Assembly: GCA_963575745.1 (NCBI GenBank)
Contig: CAUYUJ010000279.1
Coordinates: forward strand, 62,001 to 115,952
Direction: 5' to 3'
DNA from: Prorocentrum cordatum
Lineage: Eukaryota
DNA: 53,952 nt
The notes beneath the pieces were generated by a model that saw nothing but the letters and a program-made list of their open reading frames with translations, searched no databases and was not told the origin of the DNA. Positions 5,852 to 10,900 of this stretch are shown piece by piece. Position 1 is the first letter of the stretch; each line of letters opens with the position of its first letter. A program made the position numbers and the translations under genes.

Positions 5852-7972
5852 TCACGATGAAAAAGAGCCCTCAGCAGGAGCAGGGCCAGCAGGGCGATCG
5901 ACGCCATCGCTGTCCACAGCGGGGCCTTCTCCAGGACCTGCCAGAACCAGAACAAAACCCCCCGCATGCTGGTCACCGGGATCTCCTGTGTCCCCAAGAG
6001 GAGCAGCAGAGGCCATAACCACAGACTGGGCCGCAGCGAAGTCGTTGTCCGCATCCATTTCTGCTTCCAAGAATTGAACCAGTACATCCTCATCGTCCTC
6101 GCTCAAACTCGAGGCACCATTTTCTGAAGAGGCCGCTACCGCAGGCGGCGAGGAAGAGGCATCCGCAGCGTCATCAGGAAGCACATCATCACCAAGAACA
6201 ACACTGCCTGAGGGAAGGGCATCCGCCTCAGACACCTCATCATGCTGCTCGTGAGCATGGGGAGCTTCTGCAGGTAGTGGTGTCACGCTCGTAGGGTTGG
6301 TCGACCAGGAGACGCGAACACGATTGGTGAGACCATTAACCCGTGGGCGAGTAGCATTTGAGCCCTGTGCCCCCAGTTGAGAGGGTTGGGCAGATCCAGA
6401 CCCAGCTTGGTAGTCACCTACGCCGACCGAGCCCTGCAACTCGAGGTGAAGACCGCCGCTTTCATCACCACCCAGTACACTGCCAGGATTCTGAAGCATC
6501 CAGATCACCAGGCACCGCTGCTCGTCCGAAACATCGAAATGCTCGTTCAGGAAGTCTACCGCACGCGCCATCTGTCTGTCTGAGAGCAGTTCTGAAGATC
6601 CCGAGGCCATTCGGGCGGCAGACAAGGCTTCACGCACCGCCGTAATCCAACTCTGAAAACTATTGAGGGTATCTGCATTCGCTGTAGCAGAAGCCGACGA
6701 GGTAGCTGCCTCCATGGGCCCCGTGGGGGAGCGACCATCGCAGGGCCCGCCATTGTCCGTCTCGCAGCCCCACCCACTGAACCATCTGGATAGATAACCC
6801 CAAGTCCATGCGCCGCCATCGTCTCGTTGAAGCCATCGTCGGAGTCGCTGGTAGATGTGGGCTCGTGCCGTTCATCAGGAGAGAGAGAGAGAGAGAGAGA
6901 GAGAGAGAGAGAGAGAGAGAGAGAGAGAGAGAGAGAGAGAGAGAGAGAGAGAGAGAGAGAGAGAGAGAGAGAGAGAGAGAGAGAGAGAGAGAGAGAGAGA
7001 GAGAGAGAGAAGCGGGTGGCGGCCTAGAGGATGAGGCCGCATGATCAGACGGCCCATATGTGTCCACCCTCGAGCGACGCACGACAGCCTGAACTTGAGC
7101 TTCGAATTCCTCGTCAGTTAAGATCGGCCCAAAGTGGTGGGAATATTCATCGGGCGACATCTCCATATCATCCTCATGGGGGGCCCCCATGTGCTCCATG
7201 TCCATGTCCGTGGGCCCAGGGTAGCCAATGGTGTCGACGCTGCGGTTGTCCTCGTCAGGCGGGCACAGGGCATCGGTGTCGACGCAGTCGTCCCCCTCTG
7301 GCACGCGGTGCGGCAGGAGGTGCGTGAGCGGGTTGAGCGACAGCGGAGGCCCAGACGGGAAACCTGTCGCATCCGCAGGCTGTCAGCCTGTTCTGCTTCA
7401 TTCATACGTGTCAAGTCAGCAGCCCAGTCCCGTTGCCGAAGATGTGCGAAGGCACGTTGCCGTAGGGTGCGGAGACGCCGATGATCATGGGCGGGCCACG
7501 GTTGTCGGAGGTGCAGACGCGCCTGCTCCCTGGGAATAGCTGACGAGTACAAGCCACTCAGACACAGTTCGATCGCCGTATTCCAGCGCTCCGAGGCGCA
7601 AGTCAAAGCTCCCAGGGCCCCGCGCGATGAATGGGAGAAGAGTGATCGAAAGTCAGTATAGCGTAATACGTCTGCCACGTAAGGAACACACAACTCCATC
7701 CATTGCTGGAAGACAGACCCAGAATAAGAAACATACAGCGAAGGCAACCGCTGCTCTGCCCACCGAGCGATAGCAGTCAGCAGCAGACGACGCCGATGTC
7801 CTTGATCTCCTTGCACTACATGTGGAACGTGTCGCATCAGCTGGTCCTGAGCAAACAGTGGGTCCTGCTCAAGGGGGACACCACAAGACGGCGGAAGCCA
7901 TTCAGCAGTCGCACGAGTAGACCTGGCAGGGCACAATCCCTCAGTCACTGCTTCGGGCGAGCCAGGATGCAC
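5852..7972 (-). pseudogene. LINE 3' coding extension (continuation of ORF2 or an ORF3), unknown function
   Basis: Overlapping ORFs 7118-7972, 6660-7304 and 5852-6715 have natural protein-like composition; interrupted by (GA)n at ~6879-7010. Confidence 0.5.
6879..7010. repeat. (GA)n microsatellite inside the LINE 3' region
   Basis: Direct reading. Confidence 0.98.
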
Positions 7973-10900
7973 AGCCGTGCGCCTGAAGATGAGGCCAGCA
8001 ACGAATGTGCAAGTGTTCGTCCGCAGCTTGCCTCAATGCCAACACCCGCGTAGAGTCGGCCGTGTCCCAAGTTGTCGATAGGTGATGGTGCAGCCGAGTC
8101 CTCCCGACTGACGAACTGTGCCACGCAGCAAGGCACATGCTGGAGCCGAGGTTGCACCTCTCCTGCATCGTCCCAACGGGGGTAGCAAACAGCCCACAGA
8201 ACGCCCAGTATTGGAACACGCGGCTAGAGAACTCTGTACCCCATTGCATCCAGTCGTCGAAGTCACTACAGCCGCTGGGCTCCAAGAAGAGCGAGGGGGC
8301 CCAGTTCCGCGCCCAAGACTCAAGCAGAGCAGCAAATTGTTCCAGTCGGCGCAGCATGATAGGACCAATTCCAGTCGGCGGTATAGCAGAACACCTGACC
8401 TCGCAAAGCGCATCAGGATAACCCACACGACGCGGTAGAGTGTCGTGAAGGAAGCGGCGTCCGACTGGCAGCATATCGCGAATATTGACACACCGTGGAT
8501 GCTCGACCGAAGGTAGTTCAAGACAAATACCAGGCGAAGGACTGGATGGCTCCGGTGGGCGGCGCGTGATCCTGGCGCGCCCAGCCAGAGGCGAAGCCAG
8601 CGCACGTGTCCGCACTGCGCCTCTCAGTGCAGTGAGCAGCAGCTCGGGGGGGACGCGGTGCCGGTGCCGAAGACCATGATACGCGATAGTGGCAAGATGT
8701 GCGTTCATCAAATCCTCATCGAAACAGCCGCGGAGACCCCGACGATCAAAAACGTTCGAAGGCAAGTGACGACGCCCTCCTGACTTAACCATGGCGAGTC
8801 CCCATGCAAGCCCGCGACATTCCCAATAGTGTGCCAAGTCGTCTCGCCCGTCGCAGCACCCGAACAGGCACTGCTTGACACCAGACGCAGACGGGATGCG
8901 AGACGAGGTTAACCATCCGCCACAGAACGCACGAATAATGCTGGTGGACCAGGCAACAGGGTATGACGACAACTTCTTGCGTAGGGCGTCAAAGTCCAGC
9001 GCCTTGATCTCGCTGCCGAGTTGCGGGGACCATTTAAACCACCGTTTGGTGAGGGTGGTGACCAAACGCGAAGTGCAAGTGGACTGCAACGGCTGATGAG
9101 CACCAAAGTACTCAGTTGATAACGCCTGGTACGCAATCCGCTGGGCACGCCTTTTGATTGAGTCATCCCCGACCAAAGCGTTGTGGACGGCAGCAGCACC
9201 TGAAGACGCTGAGACCTTGCAAGCGTCTGACAGGAACTCGGCGAAAGACGGTAATCGCCAGAATGAGGGCGAAAGTCCGCTGCAAAGATCAGCCAAGGCG
9301 CGCTCATCAATCCACCTCGATGATGCTCTTTTCAGGTATGCCAAATACGATGCATGCTCAGGATGCGTGACAATCCCAGGTCGGATGAGCGCAGACTTCG
9401 CTGATATGGCCAAGCACCGTCGGCGGGGCCCACCCCAAGCGCTAAGTGCATGAAAGCCAACCTGCCTCAAGGCCCCACCAGGGAAACGCATCAGCTTCAC
9501 GATCACATGTATGTCTCTTAAGCTTCGCAGGGAGCGGAAGGAATTGTGCCACATAGCCCATGATGGGTAAGCATCTCGTAGTGTAGTTGATGCCATTCAA
9601 ACTCGCAGGCGCCGCAGAGGCAGCGAGGGCGCTGACTCGAGCTCGGTATTTATCCCGCGGCGCCGACCACGACTGAGGTAGCGATGCCGCTGGCCCCATC
9701 CAAATCCCCAGGTGCAGAAGATAATCTTCAACCTTGAAGGTAGACCAGTCCGCTAGCTGCTGCTGCAAGAAGACATGCACACGCTGGCGAAGCTCAGCCG
9801 AGAATGGTCCTGTCAGTGGGACAATCACACACTTAGCAGGTTTGAGCTTCAAGCTGGCCAGCTTGGCTGCCACCGCCATCGCGCGCGATGAGAATTTCAG
9901 ATCGATCATCTCGAAGAGCACTCCCCCGATGTCATCAGCGCACGCTCGAAAGACACCGCGTTGTCGAAGCTCGATCCCATGCCTGATGTCTTCCAAAATT
10001 GGCGAAGCCGCCGCGGCAAACAAGCTTCCAGATAAGGCGCAGCCTGGAATGGTGCCGCACCAGATACGGAAGAGGGGCTTAGTGACCCCTGCAGCTCTGC
10101 CCAATGCAGTGACAATCGCATAGAGAGAGCGTATCGCCTGTAGTAGAGCAGACGGTAGCTGCAGATGCCCAAGAATAATGAAACGGTAACTCTGGCTGAG
10201 GCCGGGGAACGCGCGCCCACAACCCAGTGCCGCAAGCAGCGGCCTCCTCTCCACCGGGTTGGGCATCAGCGAGACGGCCCTGGCTACCACATCGAGCTCA
10301 AGAATAGTTGAGGTGAACTGTCGGCCCGAAATAAAGCTCCGCTGCGCGGCGGATGTGGAGCTCTGCACTATGGGGGCGAGGGCGGCGTTGGAAGTGGCCG
10401 AGATAACTTTCATGTCCGTGTTGCGTAGTCCAAGGGTGCGCACTGTGTCAGGCGACCTGTTGACCCCTCTGTCGTCATCATCTCCAGCTTGACAGCCTTT
10501 AGGAAGAAAAGCTTGAAGAGTGTCACCGCGCTGTGCGAATAACCGCTGCCCGTCCATCATCCATACACAGGCTAGCCAGAGGACCTTCGCGCCCATCTCG
10601 TGTGCAGCCCACGCAGCGCATGGTGGTCCGTCGACGCCAGGAGAGGACCGCGACGGCGCGTGTTTGACAAGCACACGTTGGAGCATCTCGAAGGATGGAG
10701 GGGCAAGCCCATCATACACACATGTGTGAACAGGAAAGTCTTGGGGGGCGGCAGAAATTGGCGCCCAATAGCGCGGGAGCGCATCCAGCTTCTCGACGGG
10801 GTCGGTGTAGGTGATACCATCGACCTCGATGGAGCGCAATACCAACTTCTTTGCGAACGGAGCACAAAGCCGAGCTTTCCGTTGCACCGCCGCGATCGTA

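Follow-up and report, generated by a model that had tools for sequence, protein, structure and literature searches.

Two copies of one orphan domain of about 115-120 residues, predicted to consist of helices only, stand in tandem at the end of ORF2 of a retrotransposon in the window, which is the whole stretch of 53,952 nucleotides analysed here, and they derive from an ancient duplication. The A-B pair is a C-terminal extension of ORF2, located downstream of the reverse transcriptase (RT) and of a Cys/His knuckle and in frame with them. This ORF2 is part of a non-LTR retrotransposon family that is present in many copies in a Prorocentrum-like dinoflagellate. The extension as a whole may act as a non-catalytic nucleic-acid binder in target-primed reverse transcription, a reading that is given tentatively, at a little less than an even chance.

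The features of the element, all read on the minus strand, begin with a DinoSL (spliced-leader) relic at 13588..13609, which reads TCCGTAGCCATTTTGGCTCAGG and lies directly behind a (TCC)n tract. This relic identifies the host as a dinoflagellate, in line with the earlier note. Both spliced-leader relics in the window adjoin trinucleotide microsatellites. The 16-mer DinoSL pattern matches 13603-13588 with one mismatch, and a contig of run X1 has the leader sequence too, at 13582. The window's copy of the element derives from a spliced-leader-capped mRNA. The concept of such relics comes from PMC12014239, and the DinoSL-tagged dinoflagellate retrogenes described there share the full-length relic at their start with this element, although the retrocopy here is the retrotransposon itself and not a host gene. 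ORF1 (12235..13401), which has 389 residues from its first ATG at 13401, is an open frame with a coiled-coil-like middle; its Pfam matches are weak and of coiled-coil type alone, with E values from 0.0085 to 0.87 that do not reach the cut-off, and no named ORF1 family is matched in Pfam. The open frame at 11301..12311, upstream of the RT, is at the expected place of an endonuclease and is putatively AP-endonuclease-like, as judged by eye from its motifs; in this decayed copy it has no Pfam family at E<=10, and the best row among PDB sequences, at E 0.54, is unrelated.

The RT core (9820..10452) matches Pfam RVT_1 at E 2.9e-6, through residues 287-497 of P0003, with 27.6 bits, just under the Pfam cut-off of 29.6. 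Six PDB rows match it at E<=1, and five of these, with E values of 0.11-0.34, are chains of reverse transcriptases or of LINE-1 ORF2p; in the ESM Atlas, where the score is 0.95, 28 of 30 matches are RVT_1 clusters. A CADD box is present at 9942-9931. The knuckle C-x3-C-x8-H-x3-C, which was read from the translation at 8817..8870 and matches no Pfam model, shares one open frame (9596-7944) with copy A. The earlier note had placed the domain after the RT and a CCHC knuckle, and the order of RVT_1 (10452-9820), knuckle (8870-8817), A and B agrees with it. Behind copy B, ORF2 ends in a conserved acidic tail (7015..7423), which is interrupted by a frameshift at 7361; P0008 and P0028 match the following frame over 7361-7227, P0020 matches 7172-7095, and X1 contigs cover the tail down to at least 7058. 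The tail frame matches no Pfam family and holds no in-frame stop before the microsatellite that follows, a perfect (TC)66 tract at 6879..7010 (period 2, 66 copies, 100% matches in Tandem Repeats Finder) that marks the 3' end of the element or lies close to it, and may be either its tail or the target site. A frame of 339 residues past this tract (5855-6871) has no Pfam family and is treated as an open frame in GC-rich DNA.

The family is well represented in run X1, where 449 contigs fall on 7015-13600 with 80-100% likeness and cover all 30 of 30 bins; 35 of them are at >=99%, 36 at 95-99%, 125 at 90-95% and 253 under 90%, and their comparison gives 1480 variant places. Runs X2 and X3 gave no match. 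The LINE features found are thus a RVT_1/LINE-type RT, a post-RT Cys/His knuckle, many copies with graded divergence, a leader relic at the 5' end and a microsatellite at the 3' end. LINE-1-type elements have the same order of ORF1, ORF2 RT and Cys/His knuckle and are also multicopy with decayed copies, and the LINE-1 ORF2p chains are the best solved relatives of this RT, though very weak ones. In L1 the protein stops shortly behind the Cys-rich motif, whereas about 590 codons follow the knuckle here, made of a spacer, the tandem domain and the acidic tail. The element also differs from LINE-1 by the spliced-leader relic at its 5' end and by a 3' neighbour that is (TC)n and not poly(A); neither an endonuclease nor an ORF1 family was recognised in it by the Pfam and PDB searches.

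Copy A holds the first position, at 7995..8333 (113 residues, pI 6.0, E 1.5e-44 with the domain HMM), and copy B the second, at 7424..7783 (120 residues, pI 10.2, E 1.6e-46); the HMM boundaries fall within 4 bases of those given in the earlier note, and the peptides that the note quoted are present in the minus-strand translations. The two copies are 32% identical in BLASTP (38 of 117 positions, 55.5 bits, E 2e-14). Their Smith-Waterman score is 144, while 2000 shuffles of B give 29.0 +/- 5.0 with a maximum of 51, so that z is 23 and none of the 2000 reaches the score of the true pair; the tandem duplication, claimed from a manual alignment, is significant against shuffled controls. At the DNA level the likeness is gone, with a best local score of 11. 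In a tblastn search of the whole window A and B match only each other, at E 2e-12 and 3e-12, and the best of the remaining values is E 0.31; among all six-frame ORFs of at least 30 residues in the window the next best HMM value after A and B is 0.083; a third, cryptic copy is absent from the element and the window by this search. About 35 residues upstream of copy A, to about 8474, are also kept in P0030, P0022 and P0019.

A linker of about 70 residues (7784..7994) connects A and B and contains a frameshift, which the earlier note had put near 7950 and which the alignment with P0027 moves to 7973-7976. P0027 matches 8138-7977 in one frame and 7972-7457 in the next, and since it runs from A into B itself without a change of frame, the interruption at 7973-7976 is a defect of local kind. 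Another frameshift, at 7361 behind copy B, is located by P0008 and P0028, and one X1 contig has an extra G there. With a further one at about 9500, the window's ORF2 copy carries three frameshifts, and the element copy is now dead.

Thirty relatives are found among 1.84 billion representatives. Each is an ORF fragment or a gene model, and their sources are one EukProt set, Prorocentrum cordatum and one ENA contig. Longer relatives, of 303-965 residues with P0001 as query or of 607-2000 residues with the alignment, were not found among word-filtered candidates, which is weak evidence, and searches of metagenome, viral and genome contig collections for the DNA of other copies gave no relative. 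The tandem order recurs in other subfamilies, as P0010 and P0029 contain two HMM stretches each, in which the last part of a copy is followed by the first part of another. In the tree of the N-terminal half, the nine A-like sequences among 22 rows lie on one side of a branch (SH-aLRT 71), and 0 of 500 label shuffles are as low; in the tree of the C-terminal half, six first copies among 14 rows likewise lie on one side of a branch (SH-aLRT 51). The linkers of other subfamilies, of 38 and 52 residues, cannot be aligned with that of the window (z -0.9 to 0.8). Between subfamilies, linkers give z values of -0.9 to 3.3, and the portions of the second copy next to them give 29-33. Because first and second copies group apart, and because linkers are unalignable while the domains are alike, the duplication is old and the domain is constrained: the arrangement of first and second copy predates the split of at least three subfamilies, through which the domain was kept and the linker drifted. 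The earlier description of an old protein repeat with a kept aromatic core also holds, since the core is retained across several diverged subfamilies and the linker is not.

These comparisons bear on two other explanations. In the first, there is no functional domain, and the likeness of A and B is due to recent segmental duplication or to chance in GC-rich DNA, and is drifting. The frameshifts of the window copy and the many long open frames that arise in GC-rich DNA would agree with this, but its probability is close to negligible, as the copies are alike as protein and unalike as DNA, the A/B score stands at z 23 with no shuffle of 2000 reaching it, the two copy types recur in the same order in other subfamilies, and the AlphaFold2 helix patterns predicted for A and B are confident and matching. 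The shuffles, the tandem order elsewhere, the grouping in the trees and the difference in z between linker and domain contradict it. In the second, which the earlier note had proposed beside a targeting module, the module is captured host cargo, which has no role in retrotransposition and is kept merely by lying in the ORF. Dinoflagellate retrotransposons have taken up domains from their hosts, DNMTs among them (de Mendoza et al. 2018, as cited in PMC10449503), and this capture is a precedent for such cargo. Each of the 22 matches among the 1.84 billion representatives is, however, a short ORF fragment or a gene model belonging to this family, with no host protein of other architecture among those 22, and the three longer gene models that bear a copy (P0013, P0024 and P0034) also bear a similar Cys/His knuckle of retrotransposon type. 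That no relative was found outside a retrotransposon-like context speaks against captured cargo, and conservation of the domain across subfamilies while the linker decays argues for its use by the element, so this explanation is quite improbable.

Both copies are predicted by AlphaFold2 to form a five-helix bundle with helices only. The model of copy A has five main helices (pLDDT 82.5, pTM 0.76), and that of copy B has the same helix order (pLDDT 75.2, pTM 0.62). Pfam gives no family at E<=1 for P0001 and P0002, which represent the A/B domain; at E<=10 no family is matched by more than one of 32 domain members, and the gathering threshold is not reached. No relative is found through PDB sequences, Foldseek, VIA-align or the ESM Atlas, where the best score with copy B is 0.76, under the lead level of 0.9. 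As first suggested from its sequence, the domain matches no known LINE accessory domain, and in these searches it matches no Pfam family, solved structure or fold. The searched open-access literature contains no description of the domain, nor of a leader-tagged LINE.

The nearest sequence pattern to the domain is that of TALE homeodomains. In the PDB profile search the Meis1/2 and Exd homeodomains appear at E 0.39-1.4, which is not significant, and a stretch of 43 residues that takes in the 'HL..P[WY]P' loop aligns to those of Meis/Exd at E 0.39. The helix-turn-helix domains of site-specific LINEs (Myb-like, in R2 or TRAS/SART) are comparable to the domain, which is Trp-rich, helical and partly basic. 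It is, however, twice as large as a Myb repeat or homeodomain, the models of both copies predict one continuous long last helix where the turn of the homeodomain should be, and Pfam finds no Myb or homeobox match in any of the 32 members.

In R2 the DNA-cutting domain sits behind the knuckle, and cryo-EM work is reported to show contact with the target DNA at this place. R2 and Dualen thus share with the present element an extra folded module behind the post-RT knuckle, but the module here is duplicated, is predicted to be all-helical, and has neither a PD-(D/E)XK motif nor a nuclease match. The restriction-like endonuclease of R2/Dualen was rejected as a candidate, since both models contain helices only and no nuclease is found by sequence; fold searches also list no nuclease for the domain, which is inconclusive taken alone. 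The RNase H of I/Tad/LOA-type LINEs was rejected as well, because the models are all-helical and no Pfam RNase H is matched. More generally, the domain could be a diverged enzyme, a nuclease or a nucleotide-modifying one, that stands in for the endonuclease or adds to it: upstream of the RT no endonuclease is matched, the position behind the knuckle is that of an R2-type nuclease, and a few polar residues, namely the D of SDF, the E and R of ERW and the H of HL, recur in the 35-segment alignment. These residues form no known catalytic constellation, the predicted all-helical models are unlike the alpha/beta folds of PD-(D/E)XK, RNase H and AP-endonuclease, and neither Pfam, PDB nor fold search matches an enzyme, which makes a catalytic role very improbable.

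Because no enzyme family is matched, the A-B module is read as non-catalytic, and its part in target-primed reverse transcription would be that of a binder. Copy B has an Arg-rich last helix, and its pI of 10.2, with 10 Lys and Arg within the last 45 residues, points to a nucleic acid as the most likely ligand, which would be either the template RNA at its 3' end or the target DNA. The C-terminal segment of L1 contacts template RNA. The contact surface would come from the basic copy B, and A and B would probably pack as a pseudo-dimer. Alternatively, the tandem module may be a protein-protein docking unit for ORF1p, for a second ORF2p or for a host chromatin or replication factor, which is possible but somewhat unlikely. 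A small helical bundle that conserves an aromatic core and lacks a catalytic motif is a frequent type of interaction module; copy A is near-neutral, a conserved acidic tail lies behind copy B, and the domain matches no nucleic-acid-binding family. The strongly basic character of copy B, on the other hand, fits nucleic acid better than docking.

If the module does bind nucleic acid, A-B may be an unseen recognition fold that sets the specificity of this LINE family, either for its own 3' end or for a pyrimidine-rich microsatellite as landing site, a further step that is unlikely. Microsatellite targeting is a candidate because of the tracts beside the two leader relics and the (TC)66 at which the element ends.

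Retroposition is considered a main driver of growth in the huge genomes of dinoflagellates. The domain make-up of dinoflagellate LINEs is essentially undescribed in the searchable literature, and the end of ORF2 in this element, a place at which DNA- or RNA-handling modules are found in other LINE clades, bears a lineage-restricted, duplicated and constrained domain that has no known relative. If the module binds template or target, it would be a new solution for the choice of RNA or landing site by a LINE and would also give access to the enzyme behind dinoflagellate retrogenes; as a mere structural extension, it would be a routine addition to the orphan domains of transposons. In the gene models P0013 and P0034, which belong to another lineage, the position of the module relative to the knuckle seems to differ, the domain being before the knuckle, and such a shift, if it is a true architecture and not due to chimeric gene models, would mark an independent, shuffled unit.

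The tandem domain copies A and B lie in a non-LTR retrotransposon copy that runs on the minus strand from 13609 to about 6879 and is split over several open frames. The element is a LINE, an already known kind of element. It starts with a spliced-leader relic (13609-13588, one mismatch in the 16-mer searched), followed by a leader region of 190 bases and by ORF1 (13401-12235, 389 aa), for which Pfam gives weak coiled-coil-type matches alone. Ahead of the reverse transcriptase (RT), where ORF2 would be expected to encode the endonuclease, lies an open stretch (11301-12311) that matches no endonuclease and is otherwise unrecognised in Pfam and among PDB sequences; this stretch is either very diverged or else decayed. 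The RT, located between this stretch and the knuckle, matches Pfam RVT_1 with an E-value of 2.9e-6, slightly below the gathering score. Its closest solved relatives among PDB sequences are LINE-1 ORF2p chains (E 0.11-0.34), and in the ESM Atlas it reaches a score of 0.95, with RVT_1 clusters making up 28 of 30 matches. Downstream, the translation contains a Cys/His knuckle (8870-8817) and, after a spacer of ~160 aa, copy A (8333-7995); ~70 aa of linker separate it from copy B (7783-7424), and the domain HMM delimits both copies. Behind copy B there is an acidic tail, which relatives and contigs of the public sequencing run X1 support down to at least 7058 and which is followed, in the orientation of the element, by a perfect (TC)66 microsatellite (7010-6879).

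The knuckle and copy A share a single open frame of 551 codons, so the A/B module is part of ORF2. The frameshift that the earlier note had put near 7950 is real and is located at 7973-7976. In the relative P0027 a single frame spans the end of a copy A, the linker and the following copy B, and P0027 maps on the window in two frames that flank this position. A second frameshift is found at 7361, between copy B and the tail, and at least one more near 9442-9596, between the RT and the next frame. ORF2 has no in-frame stop ahead of (TC)66, and a 339-codon open frame with no Pfam match is present beyond it, in a different frame (5855-6871).

Copies A and B share 32% identity over 117 residues (BLASTP E 2e-14). 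Their Smith-Waterman score of 144 is 23 standard deviations over shuffled sequences and is reached by none of 2000 shuffles, which bears out the proposed tandem likeness. The 54-kb window has no third copy-like stretch, the next best matches having E-values of 0.31 (tblastn) and 0.083 (HMM). No likeness remains between A and B at the DNA level, and therefore the duplication is old. According to the HMM, one copy ends and another begins within three relatives (P0027, P0010 and P0029), and P0028 and P0033 have a like arrangement by eye.

In the alignment the domain copies fall into two types. The first-position type has the motifs SWARNW.PS and SDFDDWM, with one additional residue ahead of SDF and no insert ahead of the ERW motif, and the second-position type has SDFQQWMEWCV.Y and an insert of 4-7 residues. 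In a tree of the N-terminal half (22 rows, 52 columns) the nine A-like rows are set apart from the others by a branch with SH-aLRT 71, and in a tree of the C-terminal half (14 rows, 53 columns) the six first-copy rows are set apart likewise with SH-aLRT 51. None of 500 label shuffles needs as few changes in either tree; with so few columns the support is modest in both. The linker measures ~68-70, 52 or 38 aa depending on the subfamily. Compared between subfamilies, the linkers score no higher than shuffled sequences do (z -0.9 to 3.3), whereas the second-copy parts that flank them in these same proteins reach z 29-33, so the domain is kept while the linker drifts, which indicates constraint on the domain. 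Against this, likeness is lost in mid-domain in five of the 30 relatives, as in decayed copies. The earlier description of an old, selected repeat is upheld as to age by the DNA comparison, and as to constraint by the linker contrast, a comparison of sequences. Copies A and B are very probably a genuine, selected domain pair of ORF2.

Lineage-specific extensions are common in transposon proteins. The domain in the window proteins matches no Pfam family at E ≤ 1, and no family at E ≤ 10 is common to even two of 32 members. The best PDB sequence has an E-value of 0.25 against the family profile. AlphaFold2 models built from the 32-row alignment have five main helices in matching order in copy A (pLDDT 82.5, pTM 0.76) and copy B (pLDDT 75.2, pTM 0.62). 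Foldseek retrieves nothing at E ≤ 0.001 from PDB with either model or from BFVD with that of copy B, in line with the first impression of an unrecognised domain. The RNase H, AP-endonuclease and restriction-like nuclease of other LINE clades are alpha/beta folds and are excluded at the prediction level, because both models are all-helical. A residual lead is that the profile, over its final 43 residues, aligns with TALE homeodomains by way of the HL..PWP motif and of a basic helix with Trp at its end, at a non-significant E-value of 0.39; no Pfam homeobox match backs this likeness and both models draw one long helix there. Judged by sequence, the A/B pair is a solid, checkable orphan domain. 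No description of it or of dinoflagellate LINE ORF2 architecture was found in the open-access literature, including PMC11453091, PMC10449503, PMC10666404, PMC7245778, PMC12014239 and PMC3229502.

A two-sequence profile compared by HMMER with 1.84 billion representatives detects 22 proteins at E ≤ 0.001, of which nine reach E ≤ 1e-10 and one is the window's own. Seven more relatives come from a word-filtered profile search and two from cluster look-ups, which brings the relatives to 30. All are short ORF fragments (63-394 aa) and none has a recorded Pfam domain. The source labels looked up for 28 of them are one EukProt set bearing the name of a Pyramimonas strain (23), Prorocentrum cordatum gene models (four) and an ENA contig (one). 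The tandem domain is an orphan family, limited to Prorocentrum-like data as far as the two-sequence profile sees. The green-alga label of the 23 is at odds with a spliced-leader-bearing genome and with the P. cordatum relatives, and it conflicts with the window because of its two spliced-leader relics and its G+C content of ~60%; this label, or else how pure the data set is, looks questionable. The G+C content given for P. cordatum is 59.7% (PMC10666404). A Prorocentrum-like dinoflagellate is taken as the host. Contigs of X1, which is possibly the window's own source and so no independent evidence of range, include 449 pieces with 80-100% likeness that cover all of 7015-13600, which shows that the family is multicopy and spans a wide range of ages.

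The module keeps an aromatic core, has no catalytic signature and is placed behind the post-RT knuckle. A pI of 10.2 and 10 K+R in the last 45 residues make copy B strongly basic, whereas copy A, with a pI of 6.0, is not. In solved LINE enzymes (L1 and R2 cryo-EM), the region behind the post-RT knuckle adjoins template RNA and target DNA. The preferred reading of A/B is a non-catalytic binding module in target-primed reverse transcription, in which the two copies, diverged as they are, would pair as an asymmetric pseudo-dimer and copy B would contact nucleic acid. Nucleic acid binding is a tentative reading, with somewhat less than an even chance of being right. A protein-docking unit is conceivable but doubtful, captured cargo with no role in the element is unlikely, and an enzyme is very improbable.

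Three P. cordatum gene models deviate from the window's layout. P0013 and P0034, which the tree joins as sisters with SH-aLRT 94, each have one B-like copy 75-85 residues upstream of a retrotransposon-type Cys/His knuckle, the reverse of the knuckle-then-domain order. P0024 has a copy ~80 residues behind the knuckle end, where the window has ~160. These layouts reflect either a shift of the module inside ORF2 in another lineage or gene models that join pieces of neighbouring copies by splicing.

The relic at the 5' end of the LINE is full-length and lies directly behind a (TCC)n tract (flank 13607-13691). Its position indicates trans-splicing of the mRNA of the element itself and copying of this mRNA up to the very 5' end. 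One X1 contig also has leader letters at this place, with the junction shifted by a few bases, and no paper describing a leader-tagged LINE was found in open-access text. A second, exact relic is present on the plus strand at 17993-18014, directly behind a perfect (ATC)46 (17857-18014), and is followed by a retrocopy of ~71% GC that matches no Pfam family. Both relics adjoin a trinucleotide repeat, and in each case the repeat unit overlaps the start of the leader. Stuttering at the 5' end of the template could explain this, as could insertion into microsatellites. At 5394-5669, 13916-14035, 14297-14723, 19964-20502, 26891-27113 and 27947-28286, dense purine/pyrimidine and trinucleotide microsatellites, such as (AGG)n, (CCT)n and (ATC)n, together with tandem repeats of 64-75 and 14 bases, lie around the element, and they account for many long spurious open frames. 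A scan of 71 long frames lying outside the element gives one confident host-gene signal only, a minus-strand open frame at 23411-24706 with a clear C-terminal domain of glycosyl hydrolase family 3 (Pfam E 1.4e-24).
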